Assembly: GCA_014239365.1 (NCBI GenBank)
Contig: JAAZZB010000006.1
Coordinates: 6,307-70,306 of the forward strand
Direction: 5' to 3'
DNA from: Verrucomicrobiia bacterium
Lineage (GTDB): Bacteria; Verrucomicrobiota; Verrucomicrobiia; Limisphaerales; UBA1100
Length of the DNA stretch: 64,000 nt
The notes beneath the pieces are model-generated. The model saw only the letters and a list, made by a program, of their open reading frames with translations, ran no database searches and was not told the origin of the DNA. The position numbers and the translations under genes are program-made. Position 1 is the stretch's first letter, and each line of letters begins with the position of its first letter. This document shows positions 9,089 through 61,647 of this stretch, piece by piece.

Positions 9089-10348
9089 GTGACTGATTCC
9101 CGCAGCAACACCGGTTCCTTTAATGTTTACCTCGACCCCGCCAAGGGGGAGTGGCTCGACAGCTATGAAGGCGTGCCCACGCCGATCGCTGCCGAAGCTC
9201 TCGCAGTGTTGCCCGGCGAAAAGCGACTGACGTTTCGCTGGCAAAAGGCGCTGCACCGCACGCTGCACGCGCTGGGCCAATTGGCGCCGGGGCTGGGCTT
9301 AGCCGTGTGCCTCGCGGTGGCCGGAACTTATTTGTCGGCTTGGATGGGCAGCGCGGTTTTCACAATGGATCGCAGCCCCGTCAGCCCGATTCTCTTAACC
9401 GTGCTGCTCGGGTTGCTCATTCGCAACGTGGCCGGATTGCCGGTTGCGTTTGAGGAAGGCTTGCGGGTTTGTGTGCGCGTGATTCTGCGCGTCGGCGTGG
9501 CGTTGCTTGGCTTGCGGCTCAGCCTCGCGGCGGCGGGGCAGATCGGACTGCACGCGCTGCCGCTGGTTTTTGGCTGCATCGCTGTGGGGATTGCTTCGGT
9601 GCTTTGGCTGGGCAAACGGCTCGGCTTGCCAACGCGTTTGGCAAGCCTCATCGCGGTGGGCACGGGCATCTGCGGCGTGTCGGCCATCGTTGCCACCGCG
9701 CCGGCCATCAAAGCCAAGGACGAAGAGGTCAGCTACGCAGTTTCCGTGATCGCGCTGTTTGGAATGGTGGCGATGTGCGTTTACCCTTTCCTGGCGCATT
9801 TAATTTTTGAGGGCAATCCCACGCTCGCCGGCTACTTCATTGGCACCGCCATTCACGACACGTCGCAAGTGGCCGGCGCGGGGCTGATGTACGGCCAACT
9901 GTACGATGACCCGCGCGCGTTGGAAGTCGCCACCACCACCAAGCTCCTGCGAAACCTTTGCATGGGCGCGGCGATCCCGCTGATGGCGTGGCTGCATTAT
10001 CGCGAAAAATCAGTGCGGCCCACGGGCACCAGCGGTAAACTTAAGTGGAGCCAAACGCTGCCATTTTTTGTGATCGCCTTCATCGCGCTGGCCGGTGCGC
10101 GCACGATGGGCGACCTCAATGGACTGCACGACAATGAAGTTTGGAAATCGTTTCTCACTTGCGCCAACCAAACCAGCGTCTATTGCCTCACCCTCGCGAT
10201 GGGCGCGGTGGGCCTCGGCGCGAGTCTTTCGCAAATGCGCCAGCTCGGTTGGCGCCCGCTTTGCCTTGGCTTTGCCGCTGCGCTGTTGGTCGGCGGCGTA
10301 AGTATTCTTTTGCTAAACCTTCTGGGAAAGGTCATCGCATTTTCTTAA
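9089..10348 (+). CDS. YeiH/UPF0324 family putative sulfate exporter (polytopic membrane protein)
   Basis: Multi-TM protein with the GTGICGVSAIVATAPAI motif typical of the family. GTG start is uncertain. Confidence 0.75.
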   Translation: MTDSRSNTGSFNVYLDPAKGEWLDSYEGVPTPIAAEALAVLPGEKRLTFRWQKALHRTLHALGQLAPGLGLAVCLAVAGTYLSAWMGSAVFTMDRSPVSPILLTVLLGLLIRNVAGLPVAFEEGLRVCVRVILRVGVALLGLRLSLAAAGQIGLHALPLVFGCIAVGIASVLWLGKRLGLPTRLASLIAVGTGICGVSAIVATAPAIKAKDEEVSYAVSVIALFGMVAMCVYPFLAHLIFEGNPTLAGYFIGTAIHDTSQVAGAGLMYGQLYDDPRALEVATTTKLLRNLCMGAAIPLMAWLHYREKSVRPTGTSGKLKWSQTLPFFVIAFIALAGARTMGDLNGLHDNEVWKSFLTCANQTSVYCLTLAMGAVGLGASLSQMRQLGWRPLCLGFAAALLVGGVSILLLNLLGKVIAFS

Positions 10349-48619: not shown

Positions 48620-48743
48620 CCAAAATCCAAGGAATGACAAAATCTCAAATCCAAAATGAGTGCAGCATTTTCCCTTAGTCTCTTTGGGAATTGATGATTG
48701 GGATTTCCTTGGGGGTTTGGAAATTGGTCATTGGGATTTCCTT
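48612..48743. repeat. Imperfect long inverted repeat plus a 14-nt direct repeat in a convergent intergenic region
   Basis: CCCAATGACC (48612-48621) pairs with GGTCATTGGG (48726-48735). ATTGGGATTTCCTT occurs at 48697-48710 and 48730-48743. Confidence 0.7.
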
Positions 48744-48747
48744 CCAT

Positions 48748-50610
48748 TCAGGATGCACTCATCGTCGGCACGTCCTCGGGCGCGTCAGCGGGCGATCCAC
48801 TCCAAGCCCATTTGGCAGCGGTGCCGATGAGGAGGAAAGCGGCGGCAAGGATGATGATGAGACTTCCCCAGCGGACTTGGAGGCCGGATTTTTCGGGGTT
48901 GAGCACGGGCTGAAATTTGCGGCGGCTGGAGGGGGTGATGAGCAGCCAGCCGCTGACGGTTTTGCGGTTTTCGGTAAGGCAATTGCCGAGGGCAAACAGG
49001 CCGGCTAACGCGCCCAGAACGAGCCAGAAATTTCCCCGCCAAACAAACACATCGCAAATGATGGCGACGACGGCTGGGAAAAATAAAATCTCAACCCAAT
49101 GGCGCAGTAAACGCGGGAGGCTTCTCAGTGCGGCGAGCGCCACGGTGACGCCGAGGCCGGTGAGGGGGGCGATCCACCAGAGGTGCAGCCAATGGATTTG
49201 CCAAAGATGCATCACGCCTGCGGCGGCGAGCAGCGTGGCGGCGGTGAGCAGCGGCACGTTGTAAAAGGGCAGCGCACGGAATTGGCCGGGGCGCGTGCGC
49301 GGGAGCGGTTTGATGTCTTTTTCTTTGGGGATGAGCTTCGCGCCATTCCAAAAAAACGCCACCACCATTCCGATGCTGAGCGACCATTTGAGCCAAAGAT
49401 GCCACCACTCGCGAATCGGTTCAACGAGTGACACAGAAACAACCGCTCCAAAAATTAACCCCATCAGGATGACGTGCCAGATTTTGCGCAGGGCAAAACG
49501 CGCAGCGGCTGAGTTTGTGGTTGAGGAATGCACGGTGCGGTCCAGCGCGGGCATTAGGTTTACCCCCGCCGCGCCGAGCGCCATCACGAGTGCAGCGGCC
49601 AAGCCGATTCCAGCAAATGCCCATAGCATTGAAGCCTTCAAGGTTTCGATATTGACGCTGTTCCCAATCAGCATCACCGCGCCGGTGGCCAACGCCACGA
49701 GCACGAAGCCGCCTTGGGCGGCGAGGAAATGGCGAAAGCCGTGCCAGAAATCGATGTAGCCGATTTTAGCGGCGGCAGCTTTGGCTTCGGGCGTTGGGAA
49801 AAATGAATCCTCCACGCGGCGCATTTGCAACCCGCCAAGGCCAAGCGCGCAGCCGATGGAGAACACGACCATCAAACGCCCGGTGAATCCGTCGGCGGGT
49901 TTGAATGTGTCTGCTGTTTCTGCCGGAGGTGTGACCGGTGGCTTTGGCGTAACAGGCGGAGTTGGAGTGATGATTTTGGGCGTCGTGGGGCCTTTGGCGA
50001 TTTCGTCCGGCTTGGGTTTGGCGGATTGAGATTGAACGATGGCGGCGATCCATAAGCCGAGCACCACCAACGTAGCCATACCGAGGCCGGTTCCGATGAC
50101 GATTTTTTTGTGCTGCTTGATCCAATCCAAAAAAGTAGTAACGGTGGCAACTTCCGGCGTGGATTTGCGTTCGCGTTTGAAAACAAAACCGAAACTGACA
50201 ATGAGCGTGCCCAAACCCAACACAAACAGCCAACCGACCGTGCCGCTTGTGGCTCCGCCGCCGGCTTTTTGGGCGATGAGGACGATGCCCATCACAAAGG
50301 CCAACAGCGCGGAGGCGAGTGCGGTGGTGAAGAACGGTCGGGCTTTGATCCATGCCCACGTGGCGGAGGGGGCGCGTTCTGGCTTCAACTGCGGCTCGGG
50401 TTGAACGGTGACCGGCTCGGGTTCGACTACGGGGATTTCCTCCGCCACGGGCTGGCGGTTTTTCTCGAGCTGTGCCTCGAGGGCGGCGCGGAGTTTGTCG
50501 AGATCCACCGAGCCATCGGTGGGCAGGCGCAGCCGCAACTTCACATCACCCGCGCCCGTCGCTTTGGAAGGGGACGCGGGGACGCGAGGTTGATGACGGG
50601 GCTTAGACAT
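48748..50610 (-). CDS. Hypothetical 620-aa polytopic membrane protein (about 95-aa Pro/Glu-rich cytoplasmic head, then ~14 TM)
   Basis: Long ORF starting 3 nt after the PLD gene's stop codon. Many hydrophobic segments. No recognisable family. Confidence 0.7.
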   Translation of the reverse strand: MSKPRHQPRVPASPSKATGAGDVKLRLRLPTDGSVDLDKLRAALEAQLEKNRQPVAEEIPVVEPEPVTVQPEPQLKPERAPSATWAWIKARPFFTTALASALLAFVMGIVLIAQKAGGGATSGTVGWLFVLGLGTLIVSFGFVFKRERKSTPEVATVTTFLDWIKQHKKIVIGTGLGMATLVVLGLWIAAIVQSQSAKPKPDEIAKGPTTPKIITPTPPVTPKPPVTPPAETADTFKPADGFTGRLMVVFSIGCALGLGGLQMRRVEDSFFPTPEAKAAAAKIGYIDFWHGFRHFLAAQGGFVLVALATGAVMLIGNSVNIETLKASMLWAFAGIGLAAALVMALGAAGVNLMPALDRTVHSSTTNSAAARFALRKIWHVILMGLIFGAVVSVSLVEPIREWWHLWLKWSLSIGMVVAFFWNGAKLIPKEKDIKPLPRTRPGQFRALPFYNVPLLTAATLLAAAGVMHLWQIHWLHLWWIAPLTGLGVTVALAALRSLPRLLRHWVEILFFPAVVAIICDVFVWRGNFWLVLGALAGLFALGNCLTENRKTVSGWLLITPSSRRKFQPVLNPEKSGLQVRWGSLIIILAAAFLLIGTAAKWAWSGSPADAPEDVPTMSAS

Positions 50611-50613
50611 TTG

Positions 50614-51318
50614 CTAACTGAAGTTGCGCCAAAGCTGATCAAACATTCGGGTAAACGACTTGAGTAAATCAGCATCGCCGGTGATGAGAAAATTTTCGTC
50701 GTTGTGCAACGAGGCGGAGCGGGTCCAATTATAACTGCCGGTGAGCAAACGGGTTTTATCAAAGATGGCGAATTTGTGATGCATGTGATGTTCGGAGCGA
50801 TCCATGCGCACGGCGATGCCGGCGCGCTCGAGGCGTTTGATGTCCGAGCCGGCGTCCATCGATTTATCGTCATCGCTGATGACGCGGATTTGCACGCGGC
50901 GGCGGTGCGCTTTTTCGATAGCGTCGGCGATGCGATTATCGGTGATGGTGAACACGCAAATATCCACCGAGGCGCGGGCTTGCGCCAAGCAATCGATGAT
51001 TTTGCCCACGCAATTATCGTCGGGGCTGAAGAAAGCGGCGGCCACTTCGGCTTTGCCGGTATTGGGAAGATTCTCGGCGGGGTGCAGCGTTTTCACCGTG
51101 TTTTCCAACCACTCCAAAACCTGATGGCGCTGGCCGTTATCGGCGCTGGCGAGGGCCTCGCGGGCGGCATCAAAGGCCATGCTGCGGTAAAGGGCGCGGC
51201 GTTGTTCGTTGCCCTTGATGGAATCGGTGAGCGCGCGGATCTCGCTGCGTTCACTGCGTGAGAGCTGGAAATCCTCCAGCGTCGATTGGAAGAGGGCTTT
51301 GACCTCGTGATCTTTCAT
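50614..51318 (-). CDS. Single-HKD phospholipase D superfamily protein (Nuc/Zucchini-like) with a ~90-aa N-terminal helical domain
   Basis: HKD motif HHKFAIFDKTRLLTGSYNWTRSAS, present once. No signal peptide. Confidence 0.8.
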   Translation of the reverse strand: MKDHEVKALFQSTLEDFQLSRSERSEIRALTDSIKGNEQRRALYRSMAFDAAREALASADNGQRHQVLEWLENTVKTLHPAENLPNTGKAEVAAAFFSPDDNCVGKIIDCLAQARASVDICVFTITDNRIADAIEKAHRRRVQIRVISDDDKSMDAGSDIKRLERAGIAVRMDRSEHHMHHKFAIFDKTRLLTGSYNWTRSASLHNDENFLITGDADLLKSFTRMFDQLWRNFS

Positions 51319-51505
51319 AGCAGATATTTTCCCCCATTTTGTTCGATTGGGGCGTTTGGCGCTGGGATGAATACTTTAGCGCGTGAGCCCGATTTCGCCA
51401 ATGAAAAAGCGCCCACGAAAAAGGTTTCCCGATTGGGGTTTATTTCGTAGAATTCCCTCACCCACGCGACGACTCAAACCGTCAACCACAACGAAAGGCA
51501 ATCTT

Positions 51506-52300
51506 ATGGCCAAGTTCATTAAAAACCTGAAATCAAAAGTCGAACATTACAAAACCAAGGCGGAGGAAATTCGCGCGATGGTTGAAGAAGGCGCTGAGAC
51601 GATTCGCGAGATTCGCAGCGATGTGGAAAGCACCGTGGAGGATTTGAAGGCGGACAGCGAAGAAAAGATGATGGAGAGTCTGGAAAAAATCCAGGACTCG
51701 GAGCGTGTTTTCAAAGAGGCGGGTTATTCATTGCACGCGGTACGGCTGGAGGTGGGGTTCAACCCGAAGGTGGTTTCGGTGCTGCGGCGCGAATCGAAAA
51801 TCAACGCGCGCAAGCAGGAACGCCTGCTCCAACAGCACGCGGACAACAAGCTGTTGAGCAGTATGCTGAAATCGCTTTTCAAAGCCGAAGCGTTGGAGGA
51901 CAAAGTGCATCTGCGGCGGTTGACGTTTCACGAAGTTCAAATCGAGGTGGGCGTGGTGCCGGCGGTGCACGTGGTTTGGGAGGACAAAAACAGTGTGACG
52001 CTAACGCCGATTGCGGCTCCGGAAAAGGAGGCCGCGTACAGCAGCCCGTTCGCAAGCCGAAGTTCATTCACGAGCGGCAGTTCGTCGTTCCCGCGCAGTT
52101 CGTTTGCGGAAGATGTGGAGGTTGAAGAAGAAACCATGGAGCCTGAGCCAATGCCTCAGCCCGACCCCGCCGAGGCCGCAGTAGAAGTTGCTGCGGCGGA
52201 GGAAGATTTTACCGCGCCGAGGGTATCCGCTTCCGCGCGGGATCCGGAGGATGACAAGTGGACGAGTTTCCCGGACATTTCATTTCCGGGAAGTAAGTAA
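51506..52300 (+). CDS. Hypothetical protein: helical N-terminus, duplicated (L/I)EVG..P.V motif, acidic disordered tail
   Basis: ORF from the internal ATG at 51506 with GAAAGG 8-13 nt upstream. No family recognised. Confidence 0.5.
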   Translation: MAKFIKNLKSKVEHYKTKAEEIRAMVEEGAETIREIRSDVESTVEDLKADSEEKMMESLEKIQDSERVFKEAGYSLHAVRLEVGFNPKVVSVLRRESKINARKQERLLQQHADNKLLSSMLKSLFKAEALEDKVHLRRLTFHEVQIEVGVVPAVHVVWEDKNSVTLTPIAAPEKEAAYSSPFASRSSFTSGSSSFPRSSFAEDVEVEEETMEPEPMPQPDPAEAAVEVAAAEEDFTAPRVSASARDPEDDKWTSFPDISFPGSK

Positions 52301-52303
52301 GAT

Positions 52304-52353
52304 GGTAGGGACGCGCTATGCGCGTCCGTGGACACGCGCAGCGTGTCCCTACC
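52304..52353. terminator. REP-like double hairpin (GGTAGGG ... CCCTACC), probable bidirectional terminator
   Basis: GGACGCGC-TAT-GCGCGTCC (52309-52327) and GGACACGC-GCA-GCGTGTCC (52330-52348), inside the outer GGTAGG/CCTACC arms. The ATPase stop codon (52349-52351) lies in the outer arm. Confidence 0.6.
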
Positions 52354-55300
52354 CTTCTTCTTTGTCATCTGCGGGCGGTTGCGGTTGCTGCGCTTCTTGC
52401 AGTTGGGCGAGGAGTTGTTGGATGAGGGCGTCGCTGTCCTGCACCATATCCTGGCTGACATCCACAACCACTTCAGTGGGCTGAGCGGCGTCGAGACGTT
52501 CGCGCAGTTCGCGATGGCGTTCCTGATAATTCGCAAAGAGCACGCCAATGTTCGACAGCGCCGCCTGCATTTGGTTGGCCTGCGTTTGGGATTGTGAATC
52601 GCGGATGGTATCGGCGAGCGTGGCGTTGCTTTGCTCAATAAATTCGGCGAGTGCCATTTGGCGGTCGGCAAGTCCGGATTGGCTTTGCTGGGCAGCCGCG
52701 GCGGCGGTGCTGGATTGCTCCAAATATTTTTCAAACGCCCCGCGCAAGGCGGCAAGGTTTTCGTTGGTTGCATCGCTCGGCGCCGTGCCCTCGGGAGTGG
52801 GCGCGGCGGTTTGCTGACTGGCGAGGTGTTGAGAAATCGTGTCGCGAAGGGCGTCGAGGCTTTCGTTCATCCCGCCGAGGTCAAGCTGGGTGGTGCGAGG
52901 TTTGGAGAGCTCTTCCTTGAGCGTGCCCTGAATGGAATCGAGACCGCCGGTGAATAGCGACAATTGACTGACCACGCGGCTGACAGGATCGCCTTGATCG
53001 CCGCCCTGCAAAAATTGATTCCGGCCATAGGTTTTTTTGATGTCCTCCCAGCGCGCTTCCTCTTCTTCGGTCATCACGCCGATGAGCTGCTTGAACTTCA
53101 GGAAGTTGGCCTCCGCGCCGGTGGTGAGTGTTTGACTTTCGCCTTTGTAATGATCAAGCACAAGATTCATCAGCTCGCGCTTATTCATAATCGGCAACAC
53201 CTTTTCGGCGAGGCGATTCATATTGCGATAGGAGCCCTGCATTTTGAAGGCCGGTTCCGTGCGAAACTCATCCGCTTGCCCGGCGCTCTCGATGTACAAC
53301 TGATTTACTTTCAAAACCACATCGCGCAGCACGGCGAGCTTTTTGAGGACGTTGAGTAATTCCTCCGTTTCATTCGCGGAATAATTTCCCTGCAACTCGA
53401 TGCCCTCGCGTTGGTCAGTCTCGGCCATCCGAATGAACGCTTGAATATCTTTTTGTGCCGCCTTAGCGAGCGGCTGTAAAACGGGATTGGAGGTGATGGC
53501 GTTTTCGATGTAACTGCCGTTAAACGCTTCCTCGCGGCCTTTCATGTCGTCGCCGAGATTGTAAGTGTCGGCGCGGTTAGCGAGCATATCGGGGATGCGA
53601 AATTTTTCACCGCTCTCGGTATAAGGGTTGCCGGCCATCACAACGACGACGCGGCGGCCGCGCATATCGTAAGTTTTGGGTTGGCCGCGCCAGACGCCTT
53701 CGATCTTGCGTTGGGCGTCGCAGAGCGAAATGAATTTTTGCAAAAACTCAGGGTTGCAATGCTGGATGTCGTCCACGTAAATCATCACGTTATCGCCCAT
53801 CTCCAACGCGAGATTGAGTTTGTTGACCTCCGCGCGCGCACCGGCATTTGGGGCATCCTCGGGATCCAACGAAGACACTTCGTGGCCCAACGCGGGGCCA
53901 TTGATTTTCATAAAAATCAGGCCCATCCGATTGGCGAGATATTCCATCAACGTCGTTTTGCCGTAGCCCGGTGGGGAGATGAGCAGCAGCAAGCCCATTA
54001 AATCCGTGCGCTTGCCTTCGCCGGTGGCGCCGATTTGCTTGGCGAGGTTATCGCCCACGATGGGCAAATAAACCGTGTCCACCAATTGATTGCGCACAAA
54101 AGACGACAACACGCGCGGCTCGAATTCGTGGAGTCGCAGCAATTCTTTTTCGTCCTCAATGAGTGTTTGTTTTAACTCCTGATATTGCTCAAAGCGCGGC
54201 ACCGATTCGCGCGCGAAACGGCCGAGCTTTTCCTGAAACGCAAGGTAGTCGAAATCGTAGCTGCCTTCCTGCACGGCGTCGTGCGCGCCTTGCAATCCGG
54301 TAACGGCTTGGGCGGTAGCGGCTTTTACGACGGCTTGTTTGTGATGATGGCCGCAGAAAATCAGCGCGGCAACTTCCTCGAGATATTTATTTTCGCCATT
54401 GCGTGAGAGCAGAAAGCCGCGCACCCAGTCGCGGACGAGTTGATAATGGCTGTGCGGATTTGCCTTGAGCGGCTTCTGCGCCTTTGAAAATTCTGATTCA
54501 CTACCTTTCTTGACAAGATGACGCTCGAACTCCGTGAGTAATTTATCCGCTTCCTGACTGACGGCCCAATCATTGCCATTCGTAATCTCGTAAAATAAAT
54601 ACTCACCCGCCGGCACTGCGTCACCTTCGGGAAACAAACCCGTCTCATTTACAAAACCCGTGACCAATTCCTGCAACGCCGCGATGTATTCACGCTGAGT
54701 AGGATCGCCGGGAAACAGCTCGTTGCGTTTGGCGAAGCCCTCAAGCTGAGCGGCCCACAGTTTACGCGTATCTTCAGGACAAAAATGATGCCAATACACC
54801 GCACCACACGCCCGCACACGGGGATGGTAGCGCGCCAGCTGCAATGCGGCATGAGTGTTGAGCAGCGCGGCAAGGATCTTACCTGCATCTTGGTCATGGA
54901 TCCCTTTGGTATAGGCTTCGGCATAGCGATCGCCCATGAACTCCTGTATAATTTTGAGGCGATCGGCTGCCTTCATGGCGGCCACCTCGGCAAGACGTTC
55001 GCCGCCTTCGTGCTCAAGTTTTTGCCAGAGCAAATAAGCGAGGTATTCAGCGCGGTAAACTTCTTTATCCTCACTGATAACCTGCTGATCCCAAACTGCG
55101 CGCGTGGCGAGGAAAGTTTCGTCCTCGATGGGATCGAAATACTGAGTGCCGGTGAGATGCAAATTCTGCTCGTCGCCGCGGCGCACGATCGTGAGGTCGA
55201 GCGGTTGGGTGTTAACGGCGAACTTGTGTTTGCCAAACTGAATGACGTTTTGGCCGTCGACGTAGAGTTCCTTTTTGTCTTTGAGCTGGCGGACGGCTTC

Positions 55301-57853
55301 TTCGTGAATGGTTTTGAGTTGGGACTGGATGCCCTCCGCTTCGCCGGCTTTTTCGAGTGCGGTGAGTTCCTCCACGCGTTCGCGAATGGAATCGATAATC
55401 CGATCGGCGGCCATATAGCCGTTGATGTCGTTGACATCGTCGAAGGTGCCGAGCTTGTGCTCCACGCTTTTGAGCATTCGCTCAGCGGAAGACGTCAGCG
55501 CGGTGGCTTTGCGGTTTCGGATTTCCTCGAGCTGCAGCCGTTTCTGCTCGAAGGCGGCTTCGAGTTCGCCGCGCTTTTCATCAAGCTGCTCGATGTACTC
55601 CGGGAAATCCGCGAAGTCGCCGCCTAAATCCTCCAGTTGATTGATGACGTTATTAAAATATCCGTCGCACTTCTCCGGCGAATCGGACATATCCAAATAA
55701 TTTACCGCCGTTTGGCTGAGCAATAAAATCTGGGCATTAAACTGCGCCGCACCCTCGGCACTCATCAACGTGCGCGATTTATTTTTGAGCGCTTCTTTTA
55801 CCTGATTCACCACCTGATAAATTGCGGTGATGGATTCGATGATTCGGGTTTGCTCGGTGGTGTCATCGATTTGCAAACTGCGCACAATGTCGATGAGCAT
55901 CTCGAGGTCTTCACCGGCTTGGGTGATTTCCGCATTCAACTCTTTGGCCTCGGCCATTTTGGTGACGCCCTCGACTTGGCTGCGCTGGGCATCGGCGCGA
56001 TCGCGATAGGGATCCAGCGCCTCGGGTTGAAGCAGAAATTGAACGCACGATTGCGAAAGCGTTTCCACTTGCTCCTTCACCTCCGCCTCAAGGGCGTCCA
56101 TCGCGGCGGTGTCGATGAAGCGCACCTCGTCTTTGAGCGTGATGATTTCCCCGCGCATTCGGCGCAGTCCGCCGAGGTTAGCCACGAAATCATCAACCGA
56201 CCGGAAGTCCGCGCGGAGGACTTGATTGAACAACGTCTTGGCGCGCTTTTGGATTTCATCGGTCTTTTCTTTGGCGTCAAGGCGGAGGCGTCGCACTTTG
56301 TCAAACTCGGCAATTGCCTTTTCGGCAGAGCTGCCGATCTCTTTTAGAATTTCCACCACGCTGCCGCCATCGCCGGAGGTCAGCCACGCGTATGAATTGG
56401 GAATGCTTTCGCACCGGCGCGCCACGTCGGCGTAAAGGTCTGCGTAAGGCGATTCTTTTTGGATGAGGATGAGCACCTCATTGCACTCGGCCATCGCGCG
56501 CACCACGGATTTATTGCCCACTTGGTACAGGAACGATTCGCGGTTGCCGCTTTCCGGTTCGAAACCGGGTTGATAAAATGGCGTTTGGCGCAGTTGAATC
56601 GTGTGATGTTTGATGGCCTCTTCCTCGGCGCGGAAGCTCACAAGATCGCCATTGGGGAACAGCGAAAACCCGTGGCACGTAATGCGCTCGGTAACTTCCT
56701 GTTCGATGAGGCGATAGGGCAACAGCGCGTACAGCCCGCTCATCCGGTTGAAAAAGACATACAGAAAATCTTCGCCATTGGGCGAGGGCACCGTGCGTTC
56801 GAGCACCATTTCGCCCAGCTCGCCTTCGTAGCGTTTCAGTTCGCCGGTTTGCAGGTAGTAGCCATCGGGGAAAATCAGCCCGTGCTCCTCGGGCAACATC
56901 ACGCACGATTGGCCCAGCGTATCCACGCGATGCACGGCCTGAAGTTTTTCGTTGAAAATAAAATAGCGCGTTTGCTTTTCGCGATAGGGCGTCATCTTCA
57001 GCAAAATCAACGAGCCTTGGATGGCGTATTGGATTTCGGCATCGCCCACTTTTTGATTCGCGTCCACCACCTCCTCGGCGTAGATGCCTTCGCCGGTGGC
57101 GGTGTTGTCCTCCACTTTGATCGTGAGATCGCCGCCGACGCATTCCACAAACACGCGGTCCTCGATGGATACGTGCGGGTTGTCGCCGTGCCGAACCGCA
57201 CTGCTCGCCGGAGTTTTCCACTGAAAATTATACTGGCCGGGAAAGCCTTGGCGAAGATAGTCCGGCGCGCTGCGGTCATCCTCGTAAACCAGCTCGCCAT
57301 CTTTGTAGAGCCACTTGAACACCGTCACATCATCCACCATTTTGCCGGTGCGAAACACCATGTACAGGTGAACGCCAATTATGGCGAACCGGTGGAACGT
57401 GGCGGATTGATCGATTTTGAAAAGACGCGAGAACGATTCTTTGAAATGTTCGTCCTGTAACAACGTGAGGTCGCCCTCGTGGAACGTCTGCGCCTCGGCG
57501 TCATATTCAAACACGCTGAAGACATCACTCAACTGCCCTTGCTTGAGGCCGAGGTTTACGTTGAAGCCAAAAAGAAAACGATTGTGGCCGAGCTGAATCA
57601 TATCGCGCGGCTCGCAATTGAGCTGCGTGGACACGCGATCCATTTTCTTCAGCTCCAGCTTGCGCGTGCCAAAGACTTCCGCGCGTTGCTCGTCGAGCGT
57701 GCCCAATCCCTCGCGCAATACCTTGGCCTGATCGGTCAGGCGTTGCTTGATGAGATCGTACGCGCCGCCTTCCAGCGCGGTTGATGCGCCTTCCGCGGGG
57801 GTGCCGCTGTCGCCACTGTCAGGAGGTTCCGCCATCGGGAATTTGGAATCCAA
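52349..57853 (-). CDS. Giant (1,834 aa) single-module AAA+ ATPase with a beta-rich N-terminal domain and long coiled-coil region
   Basis: Walker A SPPGYGKTT (GYGKT at nt 53954-53968). Walker B VMIYVDDIQ (DD at nt 53768-53773). MAGNPYTESGEKFRIPDMLANRA resembles the MoxR/AAA_5 NP..G..(L/I)P...(D/N)R segment. An alternative start is at 57835. Confidence 0.85.
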   Translation of the reverse strand: MDSKFPMAEPPDSGDSGTPAEGASTALEGGAYDLIKQRLTDQAKVLREGLGTLDEQRAEVFGTRKLELKKMDRVSTQLNCEPRDMIQLGHNRFLFGFNVNLGLKQGQLSDVFSVFEYDAEAQTFHEGDLTLLQDEHFKESFSRLFKIDQSATFHRFAIIGVHLYMVFRTGKMVDDVTVFKWLYKDGELVYEDDRSAPDYLRQGFPGQYNFQWKTPASSAVRHGDNPHVSIEDRVFVECVGGDLTIKVEDNTATGEGIYAEEVVDANQKVGDAEIQYAIQGSLILLKMTPYREKQTRYFIFNEKLQAVHRVDTLGQSCVMLPEEHGLIFPDGYYLQTGELKRYEGELGEMVLERTVPSPNGEDFLYVFFNRMSGLYALLPYRLIEQEVTERITCHGFSLFPNGDLVSFRAEEEAIKHHTIQLRQTPFYQPGFEPESGNRESFLYQVGNKSVVRAMAECNEVLILIQKESPYADLYADVARRCESIPNSYAWLTSGDGGSVVEILKEIGSSAEKAIAEFDKVRRLRLDAKEKTDEIQKRAKTLFNQVLRADFRSVDDFVANLGGLRRMRGEIITLKDEVRFIDTAAMDALEAEVKEQVETLSQSCVQFLLQPEALDPYRDRADAQRSQVEGVTKMAEAKELNAEITQAGEDLEMLIDIVRSLQIDDTTEQTRIIESITAIYQVVNQVKEALKNKSRTLMSAEGAAQFNAQILLLSQTAVNYLDMSDSPEKCDGYFNNVINQLEDLGGDFADFPEYIEQLDEKRGELEAAFEQKRLQLEEIRNRKATALTSSAERMLKSVEHKLGTFDDVNDINGYMAADRIIDSIRERVEELTALEKAGEAEGIQSQLKTIHEEAVRQLKDKKELYVDGQNVIQFGKHKFAVNTQPLDLTIVRRGDEQNLHLTGTQYFDPIEDETFLATRAVWDQQVISEDKEVYRAEYLAYLLWQKLEHEGGERLAEVAAMKAADRLKIIQEFMGDRYAEAYTKGIHDQDAGKILAALLNTHAALQLARYHPRVRACGAVYWHHFCPEDTRKLWAAQLEGFAKRNELFPGDPTQREYIAALQELVTGFVNETGLFPEGDAVPAGEYLFYEITNGNDWAVSQEADKLLTEFERHLVKKGSESEFSKAQKPLKANPHSHYQLVRDWVRGFLLSRNGENKYLEEVAALIFCGHHHKQAVVKAATAQAVTGLQGAHDAVQEGSYDFDYLAFQEKLGRFARESVPRFEQYQELKQTLIEDEKELLRLHEFEPRVLSSFVRNQLVDTVYLPIVGDNLAKQIGATGEGKRTDLMGLLLLISPPGYGKTTLMEYLANRMGLIFMKINGPALGHEVSSLDPEDAPNAGARAEVNKLNLALEMGDNVMIYVDDIQHCNPEFLQKFISLCDAQRKIEGVWRGQPKTYDMRGRRVVVVMAGNPYTESGEKFRIPDMLANRADTYNLGDDMKGREEAFNGSYIENAITSNPVLQPLAKAAQKDIQAFIRMAETDQREGIELQGNYSANETEELLNVLKKLAVLRDVVLKVNQLYIESAGQADEFRTEPAFKMQGSYRNMNRLAEKVLPIMNKRELMNLVLDHYKGESQTLTTGAEANFLKFKQLIGVMTEEEEARWEDIKKTYGRNQFLQGGDQGDPVSRVVSQLSLFTGGLDSIQGTLKEELSKPRTTQLDLGGMNESLDALRDTISQHLASQQTAAPTPEGTAPSDATNENLAALRGAFEKYLEQSSTAAAAAQQSQSGLADRQMALAEFIEQSNATLADTIRDSQSQTQANQMQAALSNIGVLFANYQERHRELRERLDAAQPTEVVVDVSQDMVQDSDALIQQLLAQLQEAQQPQPPADDKEEG

Positions 57854-57886: not shown

Positions 57887-60097
57887 TTATTTCGCCGCCT
57901 TATCGCCCAGCAACACGCCGGAGATCATATCGCCGATGCCGGATTCTTTCACCGCCTTTTGCGCCTGACGGATCACCGATTTCGTGCCGCCGTCATCCGC
58001 TTGGCTCACCAACTTGGTGAGCAGCGCCGAGATGGTAAGGTTTTTCACGTCCTCGCTGGAGACACCCAGATCCTTCACCCAACCGCGAAGTTGGGTTTTG
58101 AAATAATCGGGGTCGCCGTTGAAGAAGGTGTTCTTCACATCGGTGATGGATTGGCTGTTGTTCACCAAACGATCGACCGATTTGCCGTAGCTGACCGAGC
58201 GCACGACCTTCTCGAAGAAGTCGTTCTCGCCGCCCACGATGTCGATGTTCGCGCTCTTGAGGGCTTCGCCCACCACGCGCGCCTGCGCCTCGGCCACATC
58301 TTTTTGGATTTGGATCTCGGCCAAATCCACGTCGCGATCCTTGTTGAGTTGCAGTCGGAATTCTTCGTGATCCTGCGAGGCTTTGTTGAAGATCTCGATG
58401 GCCTTGGCCATTTCGGTTTTGGACACCGCCTGAGCGAGGCCCATCTTTTCCGTACCGGCGGCTTCGGCAGCTTTCACCGCGTCAATCGCTTCACCTTCGC
58501 CCTTGCCTTCCGCCGCTTTGGCAAGGCCGCTCGCCTCGCCTTGCTTGGCGATCACCGTGGCCTCGGCCACGCCGAGCGCTTCCTCGGCTTGAGCGTCCGC
58601 CTTCTTCGCATCCGCCTTGGCGGTGATCACGCGGGCCTCGGCCAAACCATCGGCGCTTCGCATCGCTGCGGTGCCTTCGGCTTCCTGTTGCATGGCGTGG
58701 TTGCGTTTCTCGCTGGCCTTGGCTTCCGCCTCGGCGATGGTGATGACCTCGTCGGCTTTCTTTTCCGCCGCTTGTTTGGATGCCTCGGCGCCGGTGACTT
58801 CGAGGTACAAATCTTTGTTGGCAATTTCCTTTTGCGCTTGGTGCAGTGCCTCGGCTTGTTTCACTTCTTCCACCAATGACGCTTCGGCTTTGGCGGTGGC
58901 TTCCACCATCAGCACGCGCTTGGCGCGGTCGGCCGACATATCGGCTTCCACATCCAACCGGCCTTGGTGTTGGGTGGTGACTTCTTTTTCCTTGGACTCC
59001 AAACCGGCCTGGCTCTCGGCCACTTCAAAGGCGGCCGCGATGATTTTGGCTTCCTTCTCCTGTTGCATCAGGCCGATGCGCCGCAGGCGATCCACTTCGG
59101 CTTGTTCGCCGGATTCAATTTTCTCCTGCTCCAAACGCAGCAAATCCTGATCCTTCGCGTACGTGGCACTCATCACCACGCGATCCTGCTCCACCTTGCG
59201 TTCCTCAATGTGTTGGCTGGCCTCGATCTCGGCCCTCTCGGAGACCTCGCGATTTTTCTGCACTTCCACCTGCGCCGCCGCGCCTTCGCGGGCCTTGGCC
59301 TCTTCCACGGCGCGGGTTTGTTTGGCTAAATCTTCTTCGTTTTGTTTGTCCAACTCGCGCTTCTCCATTTCGGCGCGGATGTTGTCGTTTTTAATTTCAA
59401 CATCCTTTTCCTGCGTACGCTTGTTGGTCTCCTCTTCCTTTTGGGCCGTGATGCGGTTGATTTTTTCAATGCCCTGCGCGTCGAGCACATTGGCGGGGTC
59501 GTGATCTTCGCGGGAAGTTTGTTCCAGATAATCAATCGCCACGTCCTCCAGTTTGTAGCCATTGAGATCCTCGCCAATTTCATTCACGATCATTTCGCGA
59601 AACTGGGAACGCTGAACATAAAGCTGACTGAAATCCATTTGCTTACCGGCCGCTTTCAAGGCATCGGAGAATTTTGCCTCAAACAAATTACGCAGCAGTT
59701 CGATTTCCGAGGCGCGCTCGCAACCCACCGCTTCGGCCACTTCCTTAATATTTTCCACCTCCGGCGCCACGCGCACATAAAACGCCACCTCGATGTCCGC
59801 CCGAATGTTGTCCTGACAAATCAGGCCGTCCTTGCCTTTCCGCGCCACCTCCAGTTTTTTCACCTGAATATCCATGATATCCCAGCGATTCAAAAAGGGA
59901 AACCGGAACATCCAATCCTTGGTGACCTTGAGCCCACCAACACCCGTCCGCACACCGGCCTCGCCGGCCCGGACTTTTTTCAGGCAAAACATTGAAAGAA
60001 AGGCAAGGATAAGCAGGGCTAAGCCAATGACAATGGCCGCCACCACACCGGCGGCAAGACCGCCAAGACTGATAAAACTAAGAACAGGTTGGATCAT
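57887..60097 (-). CDS. Long flotillin / SPFH (band-7) family membrane protein
   Basis: ATG at 60097 preceded by GGAGA. TM segment ISLGGLAAGVVAAIVIGLALLILAFL. SPFH core (GEAGVRTGVGGLKV...RFPFLNRWDIMDIQV). About 400-aa E/A/K-rich coiled coil and a globular C-terminal tail. Confidence 0.85.
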   Translation of the reverse strand: MIQPVLSFISLGGLAAGVVAAIVIGLALLILAFLSMFCLKKVRAGEAGVRTGVGGLKVTKDWMFRFPFLNRWDIMDIQVKKLEVARKGKDGLICQDNIRADIEVAFYVRVAPEVENIKEVAEAVGCERASEIELLRNLFEAKFSDALKAAGKQMDFSQLYVQRSQFREMIVNEIGEDLNGYKLEDVAIDYLEQTSREDHDPANVLDAQGIEKINRITAQKEEETNKRTQEKDVEIKNDNIRAEMEKRELDKQNEEDLAKQTRAVEEAKAREGAAAQVEVQKNREVSERAEIEASQHIEERKVEQDRVVMSATYAKDQDLLRLEQEKIESGEQAEVDRLRRIGLMQQEKEAKIIAAAFEVAESQAGLESKEKEVTTQHQGRLDVEADMSADRAKRVLMVEATAKAEASLVEEVKQAEALHQAQKEIANKDLYLEVTGAEASKQAAEKKADEVITIAEAEAKASEKRNHAMQQEAEGTAAMRSADGLAEARVITAKADAKKADAQAEEALGVAEATVIAKQGEASGLAKAAEGKGEGEAIDAVKAAEAAGTEKMGLAQAVSKTEMAKAIEIFNKASQDHEEFRLQLNKDRDVDLAEIQIQKDVAEAQARVVGEALKSANIDIVGGENDFFEKVVRSVSYGKSVDRLVNNSQSITDVKNTFFNGDPDYFKTQLRGWVKDLGVSSEDVKNLTISALLTKLVSQADDGGTKSVIRQAQKAVKESGIGDMISGVLLGDKAAK

Positions 60098-60327
60098 AAT
60101 TTTCTCCGAAACAGTTGAGTTGTTAATTGCACAAACATATTGCGACACAGGACACCGCGCACGTTGGAGTACCGCCCGAGGGAAGCAATGCGTGGTGTCG
60201 GGGAGAGAGTACACAAAACTCCCAAAGGCGCGCCACTACAATCTTGAAGAAAGTTTATAATCGCTCAAACCCAAAAAAGCCGAAAAAACCGGTGGCACAT
60301 TGCCCGAGGGCGAGTTAAATTCTCCCA

Positions 60328-61647
60328 ATGAAGACCACACTGCTTTCTCTCACCCTTATTTTTGCCTTCACCTCCACCCTCGCAATTGCCGCCGATCCGC
60401 TGAGCAATTCGCCTTCGCTCCTCAACCGCCTCAAAGACGAAAACGCCCGCGGGCAGGATCAATGGATTTACAACGACCTCAAAAAAGCCATGGCCGAAGC
60501 CAAGCGCACCGGCAAGCCCATCTTCGTCACCTTTCGCTGCGTGCCGTGCCACGCCTGCAAAGCCTTTGATGCCGAGGTGGCCAAAGACAACCAAGCCATC
60601 CGCGCGCTCGCCGAAAAACAATTCATCTCCCTCCGCCAAGTGGAAATGAAAGGCGTGGACCTCAGCCTCTTCCAATTCGATTACGATCTCAACTGGGCCG
60701 CCATGTTCATCAACGCCGATGGCGTCGTGTACGGCCGCTACGGAACCCAATCCGCCGATGGCCCCGATGCCTTCAACTCCATCGGCAGCCTCGAGAAAGC
60801 CATGCGCCGCGTGCTTGCGCTGCACGCCGGTTATCCGAAAAACAAAACCACCCTCGCCGCCAAAAGTGGCGCACCCAAGCCGTACCGCACCGCGATGGAA
60901 ATGCCCGGCCTCGAAAACAAAAACAATTACCGCAAAACCACCGAACGCAATAACTGCATTCATTGCCACAACATCCACGACGCCGAAAACCACAAGCTCC
61001 ATCTCGAAAAAAAGATGACCCACGAAACACTTTGGCGCTATCCATTCCCCGATAACCTCGGCCTCAGCATCGATCCCAAAGACGGCCAGCGCATCGCAAA
61101 AGTTTCCCCCAACAGCGCCGCCGCCCGCGCCGGATTGCGCCCCGGCCAAACGCTCACCCACGTCAACAGCCAACCCATCATCTCCATCGCCGACATCCAA
61201 TGGGTGCTGCACAATCTGTCCAACGACGCCGAACTCATCCGCATCAACATCGCCGGCAGCTCCCGCCAACATCTCATCCGCACCGCACCCGGCTGGAAGA
61301 AAACCGATATTTCCTGGCGCGGCTCATTGTGGAATCTGCACCCGCGCCTGCGCGTGTGGACGCCCGAGGTGAAGGATGACGAACTCAAGCGCCTCCGCCT
61401 CCCCGCCGGGCACCAAGCCCTTAAAGTCAAATGGATCAACCAAAATAGCCCCGAAGGCAAAGCCGCCTCCCGCGCCGGACTTCGCCTCAACGATTACATC
61501 ATCGCCATCAACGGCAAACCACTCGCCAAAATGGGCCATCGCGAATTCAACACCCACGTCAAACTCAACTATAAATCCGGCCAAAAACTCCCACTCACTT
61601 TGATCCGCAATGGCAAACGCATCCAGTTCGAGTGGCCGCTGCAATAA
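60328..61647 (+). CDS. Secreted thioredoxin-fold protein with two PDZ domains
   Basis: Signal peptide. GKPIFVTFRCVPCHACK thioredoxin-like CxxC region. Two PDZ-like segments (AKVSPNSAAARAGLRPGQTLTHVN and QNSPEGKAASRAGLRLNDYIIAING). A second CxxCH motif (CIHCH). Confidence 0.75.
   Translation: MKTTLLSLTLIFAFTSTLAIAADPLSNSPSLLNRLKDENARGQDQWIYNDLKKAMAEAKRTGKPIFVTFRCVPCHACKAFDAEVAKDNQAIRALAEKQFISLRQVEMKGVDLSLFQFDYDLNWAAMFINADGVVYGRYGTQSADGPDAFNSIGSLEKAMRRVLALHAGYPKNKTTLAAKSGAPKPYRTAMEMPGLENKNNYRKTTERNNCIHCHNIHDAENHKLHLEKKMTHETLWRYPFPDNLGLSIDPKDGQRIAKVSPNSAAARAGLRPGQTLTHVNSQPIISIADIQWVLHNLSNDAELIRINIAGSSRQHLIRTAPGWKKTDISWRGSLWNLHPRLRVWTPEVKDDELKRLRLPAGHQALKVKWINQNSPEGKAASRAGLRLNDYIIAINGKPLAKMGHREFNTHVKLNYKSGQKLPLTLIRNGKRIQFEWPLQ

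Follow-up and report, generated by a model that had tools for sequence, protein, structure and literature searches.

The 64,000-nucleotide stretch of a Verrucomicrobiia bacterium genome analysed here (the window; contig JAAZZB010000006.1) encodes a PLD-superfamily phosphodiesterase that is the bacterial counterpart of eukaryotic PLD6 (Zucchini/MitoPLD). By sequence and predicted fold, this enzyme (hereafter the PLD) belongs to the single-HKD Nuc/Zucchini clade and retains an intact catalytic motif; its gene is tightly coupled to that of a polytopic membrane protein, and it is recurrently linked across genomes to genes for a flotillin-like protein and a giant DUF3686 AAA+ ATPase (Table 1). A PLD within the flotillin/AAA+ operon of some Proteobacteria is already known (Ravi et al. 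2024, PMC11237479), and the window reads as a variant of that module to which two orphan genes, encoding a 264-aa protein and a 13-TM membrane protein, have been added.

Table 1. Features of the PLD locus and the adjoining flotillin/ATPase genes (window positions).
Feature	Position	Strand	Basis
Orphan polytopic membrane protein, 620 aa	48748..50610	-	Hydropathy scan, no family match
Spacer CAA, from PLD stop TAG to membrane-gene ATG	50611..50613	-	Sequence read
Single-HKD PLD-superfamily phosphodiesterase, 234 aa	50614..51318	-	PLDc_2 profile, PDB phmmer, AF2, Foldseek
Divergent intergenic region, 187 bp, PLD start to 264-aa gene start	51319..51505	.	ORF layout
Orphan soluble protein, 264 aa, gene between ATPase and PLD	51506..52300	+	ORF layout
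Giant DUF3686 / DUF7902 / single-AAA+ ATPase, 1834 aa as ORF	52349..57853	-	Pfam
Flotillin-like SPFH/Band_7 protein, 775 aa, directly upstream of ATPase	57887..60214	-	Band_7 profile

The PLD contains one canonical HxK(x)4D(x)6GSxN motif (H180, K182, D187 and G194-S195-Y-N197), whose residues do not vary among 18 aligned sequences, and it matches PLDc_2 at 108.9 bits (cut-off 27) over residues 107-230. Its best solved relative in a phmmer search of the PDB is human/mouse PLD6 (E 6.6e-30, with Nuc at 2e-10); the catalytic domains of the PLD and PLD6 share ~45% identity over 133 residues, and the HKD motif as well as most of the PLD6-shared residues are invariant in the bacterial family. In the AF2 model (pLDDT 83.9), residues 3-78 form a four-helix bundle, which a disordered linker (81-90) connects to the Zucchini/Nuc-type catalytic domain (94-232). 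Foldseek placed Zucchini, Nuc and NucT at the top of its matches to this model (4ggk at 4e-14 with a TM-score on target of 0.78, 1byr at 4e-12 with 0.84, then 6ehi). No hydrophobic segment that could form a transmembrane anchor is present in the N-terminal 90 residues, and the hydrophobic N-terminus of a signal peptide is likewise absent. The single HKD motif, the missing signal peptide and an extra helical N-domain of ~90 aa had all been described in a first-pass annotation of this DNA, and each is borne out. The four-helix domain is present in all full-length relatives. Its resemblance to a TerB-like module (a 'DGxLxxxER' look) was rejected, as Pfam scans of nine N-domains with E values up to 10 returned neither TerB nor any consistent family, and a PDB match of this domain to the designed tandem-repeat protein 7rdr was treated as a helical-composition artefact. 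Against the NucT/Nuc equivalogs NF010490-93 the PLD reaches at best 56.1 bits, far below the curated threshold of 297. It also has neither the two HKD motifs nor the Cls/Pss model match of cardiolipin/phosphatidylserine synthases (ClsB NF008427, 14.4 bits, cut-off 281); the profile comparison proposed at first pass thus points to the Nuc/Zucchini type, and the grouping with such synthases that the annotation had named as its counter-case was not observed. By analogy with the Nuc and Zucchini crystal structures, the enzyme would homodimerise to form one composite active site.

The PLD and membrane-protein ORFs are both present as first annotated, and the reported 3-nt distance between them corresponds to the junction TAG-CAA-ATG. 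No Shine-Dalgarno-like sequence is visible at this short spacer, which suggests a translational-coupling junction. The first-pass annotation had called the PLD 'fused' to its membrane partner, but the two appear instead to be separate, translationally coupled proteins. A stop-codon read-through fusion, with the two ORFs in frame across TAG-CAA, was rejected because the PLD stop codon varies between TAA, TGA and TAG at 10 related junctions, where the spacer measures 2-20 nt (3 nt in six; 2, 5, 12 and 20 nt also occur). The flotillin operon does lie 1 kb away, as had been noted, but the gap contains the 264-aa gene on the opposite strand, so that the PLD and membrane genes form a predicted transcription unit of their own here. 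The divergent region presumably holds the promoters of both this unit and the 264-aa gene. A sigma-70-like match on the + strand at 51299-51328 is a single match and not above chance, and terminator and promoter scans around the block genes gave chance-level results only.

The membrane partner has ~12-13 TM segments in a hydropathy scan, rather than the ~14 counted at first pass. Its N-terminus, which is cytoplasmic, carries the conserved motif VKLRLRLPTDGSVDLDKLRAALE followed by a Pro/Glu-rich linker; further along the chain are a loop rich in Pro (195-240) and, at 547-579, a small beta-hairpin region, and the AF2 model is poor (pLDDT 47 from 10 sequences). No family was found for it in Pfam, NCBIfam or PADLOC, nor for its 852-1438 aa versions, and only 40 matches were obtained among 1.84 billion representatives. 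Three genera carry the gene downstream of the PLD, in versions encoding 620-1438 aa; it is the fastest-evolving of the block and is limited to one verrucomicrobial family. As it is absent from all other PLD-bearing lineages it cannot be essential for the enzyme, and as a local addition within a single family of marine Verrucomicrobiota it is of lesser general importance. Among Verrucomicrobiota the 264-aa protein accompanies the PLD more widely, its gene occurring in all verrucomicrobial loci whose flanks are long enough. In distant members of the phylum this gene runs in the same direction as the PLD and ends 0-12 nt from the PLD start; it abuts the PLD in locus L049, and the gap is ~220 nt in locus L048. 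The N-terminus of the protein is helical; its other features are two beta-rich repeats and a tail that is acidic and rich in S/P. None of its 206 relatives has a Pfam domain, the few source-named ones are all verrucomicrobial, and PADLOC returned one weak, sub-threshold match (DUF499, E 0.0017).

The flotillin-like protein (Band_7 at 7.8e-13) and the ATPase (DUF3686 at 6.8e-153, DUF7902, and AAA at residues 1289-1413) are encoded 33 nt apart in the window, and their genes are syntenic in all loci examined. Full-length PLD relatives are common in Planctomycetota, Myxococcota, Verrucomicrobiota and some Gammaproteobacteria, with ~50% identity across phyla, and the proteobacterial proteins (Pragia, Vibrio) are full-length orthologues at 41-47% identity. 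The order flotillin-ATPase-264aa-PLD was found in 18/18 verrucomicrobial loci with enough flank, flotillin-ATPase-rhomboid-PLD in Pragia fontium, flotillin-ATPase-PLD in Vibrio campbellii and PLD-3TM-flotillin-ATPase in one Pirellulaceae; the PLD is co-directional with the flotillin/ATPase pair in distant Verrucomicrobiota, Pragia, Vibrio and two further Pseudomonadota. At genus level within the window's own order, five genera have both PLD and ATPase, two the ATPase only, none the PLD only and 28 neither (Fisher 6e-5). In a Pseudomonadota sample the corresponding counts are three, six, none and 291 (Fisher 2e-5), and the ATPase, present in all three PLD genomes, is adjacent in two; both Fisher values overstate the signal, as the tests treat related genomes as independent. 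The linkage of the PLD to flotillin and ATPase therefore recurs beyond the window genome, in Verrucomicrobiota, Gammaproteobacteria and one Pirellulaceae, and the confinement to a single genome that the first-pass annotation had listed as evidence against itself is not what we see. The four-part unit that it had drawn, with the membrane protein included, is not general: that protein stays within one family and most planctomycete PLDs occur without the ATPase. The PLD tree, which was also read for a single as against a multiple origin of the linkage, largely follows taxonomy and needs 2-4 changes of the 'linked' label, with an unresolved backbone and two gammaproteobacterial rows that are long branches.

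As the first-pass annotation had stated, sequence alone cannot separate a lipid from a nuclease reading of this enzyme, and our computational analysis did not do so either; on genomic context alone we lean towards a lipid substrate. The best explanation, which we put forward tentatively and at less than even confidence, is that the PLD is an accessory enzyme of the flotillin/DUF3686 module that is tethered to the membrane by its partner and acts on anionic phospholipid; we infer both the tethering and the substrate. Under this explanation, a cytoplasmic phosphodiesterase would serve the flotillin and DUF3686 AAA+ membrane module in Verrucomicrobiota and some Gammaproteobacteria. In the present verrucomicrobial family it would be co-translated with the lineage-specific ~13-TM protein, which may hold or regulate it at the inner membrane face, replacing the role of the TM anchor of MitoPLD. 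At the membrane it could convert cardiolipin or PG to phosphatidic acid, and this predicted cleavage would be part of membrane remodelling or repair. The membrane reading is supported by the variable accessory genes of the module, all of which encode membrane proteins (a 3-TM protein at the YqiJ position, a rhomboid and the 13-TM partner); no nucleic-acid enzyme accompanies the module among the accessory genes of the examined loci. The vertical, chromosomal character of the PLD, which is highly conserved with a largely taxonomic tree, also counts towards this explanation. Several observations point the other way. To our knowledge, every biochemically characterised close relative (Nuc, NucT and Zucchini) is a nuclease, which speaks against a lipid substrate, and a search of this genus turned up no PLD-type cardiolipin synthase, so that cardiolipin itself may not be made. 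The separate transcription unit of the PLD pair in the window, the planctomycete PLDs mostly lacking the ATPase and the missing membrane partner in other PLD lineages likewise weigh against the accessory role.

The foremost rival holds that the PLD is a Zucchini/Nuc-like endonuclease effector, cleaving ssRNA or ssDNA, of a membrane-associated defence-like or stress-triggered module in which flotillin/AAA+ would free the nuclease or switch it on upon sensing phage entry or damage to the envelope. We consider this rather unlikely, although the closest characterised homologues are nucleases, a nuclease paired with an NTPase is a common defence layout, and in two phyla the PLD has a patchy distribution that it shares with a rare ATPase. 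The PLD also shares the PLDc_2 catalytic domain with DISARM DrmC, Mokosh MkoB/C and Dpd DpdK, a domain-level similarity that falls far short of the equivalog cut-offs (DrmC 31 bits against 133; DpdK 20 bits against 100); with no partner genes alongside it, the PLD does not belong to a DISARM, Mokosh, Dpd or Zorya-type system. PADLOC gave only weak, partial domain-level matches for the PLD (best 5e-11) and none for the ATPase, flotillin or membrane partner. The window shows neither an island signature nor an integrase, has no defence gene nearby, and its GC is flat. No full-length orthologue was found in a phage collection, and those in a plasmid collection are confined to two megabase-sized Vibrio/Photobacterium replicons filed as plasmids. 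For the defence-like module suggested at first pass, nothing here indicates a defence island, and the unusual conservation of the PLD and its taxonomic tree are unlike those of typical defence genes.

It is unlikely that the PLD is instead a housekeeping phosphodiesterase acting on its own, with a role such as RNA or DNA turnover, and that its proximity to the flotillin/ATPase and membrane genes reflects inherited synteny and operon packing with no function in common. The Planctomycetota speak for it: the ATPase is present in 9/34 PLD genomes of the sample and adjacent in none, a weak co-occurrence, and as 25/34 carriers have no ATPase the enzyme must work there without the module. Most planctomycete and myxococcal orthologues have no conserved neighbour, and clustering of 80 loci yielded only generic sulfatases, MoxR and kinases as shared partners of stand-alone planctomycete PLDs, with a crude ORF caller that produced antisense artefacts in high-GC loci. 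Separate transcription of the PLD unit in the window fits as well, and synteny by itself within one family is weak evidence. Set against these points, three phyla show the linkage, in three different gene orders, the PLD never occurs without the ATPase in good genomes of the window's own order or in the Pseudomonadota sample, and the 2-20 nt junction is kept although the membrane gene diverges to 22% identity.

A bolder extension of the accessory role, which we regard as improbable, is that the prokaryotic Zucchini/MitoPLD orthologues are dedicated effectors of the flotillin and giant-AAA+ machine, to which the verrucomicrobial orphans (264 aa and ~13 TM) would dock the enzyme; the clade would then have been membrane-coupled before eukaryotes took it up. 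Were this true, the bacterial substrate could settle the lipid-versus-RNA dispute over PLD6. Very improbable is a lipid transphosphatidylase, a cardiolipin-synthase-like single-HKD dimer replacing the PLD-type Cls missing from the lineage: the PLD is the only PLDc_2 gene in three genus genomes (92-95% complete) while PLDc_2 was detected in 12/14 control genomes, but it has a single HKD, no TM segment and a ClsB score far below cut-off, its phyletic pattern is patchy rather than core, and sister genera entirely without it are viable.

The flotillin and DUF3686 AAA+ pair is widespread and has a putative function only, and a catalytic accessory that repeatedly joins it is the most tractable handle on the module; a literature search under the name 'DUF3686' found nothing. 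The PSP-associated operon described by Ravi et al. 2024 (PMC11237479), made up of flotillin, beta-propeller AAA+ and YqiJ-YuaF genes with an optional PLD, is among the nearest known systems: the window has the same Band_7/flotillin gene followed by a beta-propeller (DUF3686) AAA+ gene, with an HKD hydrolase gene 1 kb away across the opposite-strand 264-aa gene. It differs in that PspA_IM30 has no match in the whole genome (93.6% complete), NfeD matches lie on other contigs only, and the block contains neither the CesT/Tir-PspA dyad nor a YqiJ/YuaF 3-TM gene; the window adds the orphan 264-aa and 13-TM genes and has the PLD in a separate, divergent unit. Nuc (pKM101/Salmonella) and NucT (Helicobacter pylori) share the single-HKD fold and catalytic motif of the PLD at only 22-33% identity, but are secreted or periplasmic, and Nuc-type genes lie on plasmids beside tra genes and lack the N-domain.

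The lipid activity of MitoPLD is disputed (the Zucchini structure papers of 2012), which also weighs against a lipid substrate, and for over ten years it has been debated whether PLD6 acts on cardiolipin or on piRNA precursors. This question can be addressed cleanly with a bacterial orthologue that is soluble, easy to express and set in a defined membrane context. In sequence comparison, the PLD is the closest bacterial relative of PLD6 (~45% identity): both have a single HKD domain of equal length, PLD6 is the top Foldseek match and has nearly all the invariant residues of the bacterial family, and both occur at or near a membrane context. In place of the N-terminal TM segment by which PLD6 anchors itself, the PLD has the soluble four-helix N-domain; it lacks a piRNA context and, in this lineage only, is accompanied by a separate membrane partner.

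The gene for the single-HKD enzyme (PLD) is tightly coupled to that of its polytopic membrane partner, and PLD is recurrently linked to a membrane-scaffold/ATPase module. The 3-nt distance from PLD stop to membrane-gene start noted in the first-pass annotation can be read directly at the junction (...TTCAGT TAG CAA ATG...), which has no obvious Shine-Dalgarno sequence. The annotation also placed the pair 1 kb from the flotillin/ATPase operon; the distance holds, but the interval contains an opposite-strand gene for a 264-aa protein, divergent from PLD and convergent on the giant DUF3686/AAA+ ATPase, and because this gene separates the pair from the ATPase, the pair is its own transcription unit. 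GC content is flat across the PLD region. The two ORFs share a reading frame across TAG-CAA; a read-through fusion was considered and rejected, as this frame is not conserved in relatives, where stops (TAA, TGA or TAG) and spacers (2-20 nt) vary. Between its PQQ-propeller and membrane genes the window lacks an extra PSCyt2/DUF1501-like gene pair that is present there in relatives of the same genus. In most relatives a Trx7/PDZ (seleno)protein gene keeps its synteny with the flotillin gene.

Features of the window and of related loci (L-numbers)
Feature	Sequence	Coordinates	Strand	Remark
Membrane protein gene	window	48748-50610	minus	620-aa ORF, co-directional with PLD
PLD gene	window	50614-51318	minus	234-aa ORF
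264-aa gene	window	51506-52300	plus	fills 1-kb interval between PLD and ATPase
Giant ATPase gene	window	52349-57853	minus
Shared frame at junction	window	50605-50625		read-through would give an 856-aa fusion
PQQ-propeller/membrane gene gap	window	48620-48747		only 128 nt
Trx7/PDZ gene	window	60328-61647	plus	NCBIfam equivalog 'Trx7/PDZ domain-containing (seleno)protein', 2e-129
PSCyt2/DUF1501-like pair	L027	4175-6441
PSCyt2/DUF1501-like pair	L029	3858-6108
264-aa protein paralogue	L046	15051-15659	minus	195-202 aa (with L047)
264-aa protein paralogue	L047	5803-6390	minus
Rhomboid protease gene	L111 (Pragia fontium)	9114-9686

As first proposed, PLD has a single canonical HKD motif (H180-x-K182-x4-D187-x6-G194-S-x-N197) and no hydrophobic N-terminus that could serve as a signal peptide. 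The suggested comparison of PLDc_2 and Nuc-type models placed residues 107-230 in Pfam PLDc_2 (108.9 bits; gathering score 27), with NucT models as top NCBIfam matches (56 bits, far under the equivalog cut-off of 297) and DrmC and DpdK scoring more weakly. Among solved structures, human and mouse PLD6/Zucchini are closest in sequence (6.6e-30 and 2.8e-28; ~45% identity over 133 residues), followed by Drosophila Zucchini, Nuc (2e-10) and NucT. An AF2 model (18 homologues as input, pLDDT 83.9) bears out the extra helical N-domain as a four-helix bundle (residues 3-78), joined by a disordered linker (81-90) to the catalytic domain, and a Foldseek search with this model ranked mouse Zucchini, Nuc and NucT at the top. 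The N-domain had no Foldseek match; a TerB-like identity was tested and is unsupported. Homologues of full length (~50% identity) are abundant, with 4158 clusters at E < 1e-5; every one has the N-domain, and their sources call them 'endonuclease', 'cardiolipin hydrolase' or 'PLD-like'; D16, E23, A48, F49, W70 and L71 of the N-domain are invariant. The catalytic domain is intact and of the Zucchini/Nuc type.

A scan of GTDB species genomes yielded >590 PLD loci, the best 80 of which lie in Verrucomicrobiota, Planctomycetota, Myxococcota and a few Pseudomonadota; the closest kin are verrucomicrobial MAGs and single-cell genomes. Every one of the 18 verrucomicrobial loci whose upstream flank is long enough has the order flotillin - DUF3686 ATPase - 264-aa gene - PLD. 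In four distant loci (Pedosphaera/Limisphaerales-type, with a PLD ~50% identical) the 264-aa gene runs in the same direction as PLD, its end 0-12 nt from the PLD start in three (abutting in L049; ~220 nt away in L048), and no membrane gene follows PLD; relative to these, the window's family has the 264-aa gene inverted and the membrane gene added. Elsewhere the arrangement differs: Pragia fontium has a 3-TM protein, flotillin, ATPase, rhomboid and PLD, then lipoprotein genes; a 2.06-Mb Vibrio campbellii replicon filed as a plasmid has flotillin, ATPase and PLD, with a 36-nt gap ahead of PLD; and one Pirellulaceae MAG has PLD, 3-TM protein, flotillin and ATPase. The rhomboid is a further membrane accessory, of which we found no mention in the accessible portion of Ravi et al. 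2024 (PMC11237479). The other ~55 planctomycete and myxobacterial loci among the best 80 have neither ATPase nor flotillin within 10 kb, nor another conserved neighbour.

PLD and ATPase co-occurrence
Sample	Both	ATPase only	PLD only	Neither	Fisher one-sided
Own order, 35 genera (61 genomes)	5	2	0	28	6e-5
Pseudomonadota, 300 genomes	3	6	0	291	2e-5
Planctomycetota, 301 genomes	9	32	25	235	0.03

These p-values overstate the signal because related genomes are not independent. Four genomes of the own order have PLD without an ATPase match, all fragmented assemblies, and in both whose coordinates were checked the PLD contig breaks off within that gene or at its edge. The two genes are adjacent in two of three Pseudomonadota carriers and in none of the nine planctomycete co-carriers (4.6 co-occurrences expected by chance; odds ratio 2.6). 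A wider sample of 200 verrucomicrobial genomes has the ATPase in seven and PLD in none, and 14/14 control genomes had no ATPase-family match. Of the co-occurrence first envisaged, PLD-ATPase linkage thus extends beyond the window's genome (own order, Pseudomonadota, one Pirellulaceae), but the membrane protein belongs to the set only within the window's family. The pattern is clearly that of a self-sufficient enzyme that joined the flotillin/ATPase module in several lineages, in differing gene orders; the PLD tree mostly tracks taxonomy and fits either a single origin of the linkage or several.

The partner is polytopic as annotated, with ~12-13 hydrophobic segments (Kyte-Doolittle) rather than ~14, and its K/R residues are distributed as expected for an N-in, C-out topology. 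BLAST-detectable homologues are confined to two genera of the family (71-84% identity within genus, 32-47% in the sister genus). Searched with a profile, 1.84 billion representatives yielded 40 proteins in all, and no member of the group matches a library family; the AF2 model is unreliable (pLDDT 47). In a third PLD-bearing genus the gene behind PLD encodes 852-1438 aa with 13-15 TM segments, sharing with the partner only scattered residues and the N-terminal motif K(L/I)R(L/V)R...(V/I)D(L/V)..LR (~22% identity). A shorter paralogue of the 264-aa protein lies directly behind this long gene, and the PLD/membrane pair is therefore flanked there by two 264-aa-family members. Over the same genome pairs PLD is 75-94%, the ATPase 71-96% and the 264-aa protein 53-92% identical, the membrane protein being the fastest-evolving gene of the block; the PLD-membrane spacer nonetheless stays short. 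In our reading the partner is an adaptor or anchor specific to this lineage, not a conserved catalytic partner.

The first-pass observation is confirmed and its interpretation, a lipid-remodelling or nuclease effector, partly supported. PLD would dimerise and be drawn to the membrane's inner face, in the window's family by the 13-TM partner, perhaps via its conserved cytoplasmic N-motif; other optional accessories of the module (rhomboid, 3-TM proteins) are also membrane proteins. We tentatively favour a phospholipid substrate, the kind reported for MitoPLD. This reading is weakened in that the characterised relatives are, to our knowledge, nucleases, that no PLD-type cardiolipin synthase was found in the window's genus, and that planctomycetes use PLD without the module. 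No PLDc_2-family gene other than PLD was detected in G000 (the window's own genome), G006 or G007, all of this genus and 92-95% complete; sister genera have only a two-domain ~716-758 aa match resembling polyphosphate kinase.

The main alternative, that PLD serves a stress or defence module as its nuclease effector, is unlikely. The nuclease relatives suit it, and PADLOC gives PLD partial, domain-level DrmC and MkoB/C matches; against a classical defence island, PADLOC has no match for ATPase, flotillin or membrane protein and one weak sub-threshold match for the 264-aa protein, the phage collection contains no full-length PLD orthologue and the plasmid collection has them only on two Vibrio/Photobacterium replicons of megabase size, and PLD is highly conserved with seemingly vertical inheritance. 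That PLD is an incidental neighbour of the flotillin/ATPase pair is rather improbable. A substitute for Cls is very improbable: the ClsB match is at noise level (14 bits against a cut-off of 281), and PLD does not group with housekeeping Cls-type enzymes.

The flotillin/AAA+ pair has been tied to the phage-shock response. The window's genome (93.6% complete) yielded no PspA/IM30 gene, and its NfeD-domain genes are located elsewhere, on contigs C43 and C82. The lipid-versus-nuclease question now attaches to a bacterial family resembling PLD6 that is broad, well defined and would be easy to test at the bench. In some Proteobacteria an HKD hydrolase also lies within the flotillin/AAA+/YqiJ operon, according to Ravi et al. 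2024 (PMC11237479), the only account of PLD in such an operon that our literature search found; the window's block is a verrucomicrobial variant of this published module with two orphan additions.
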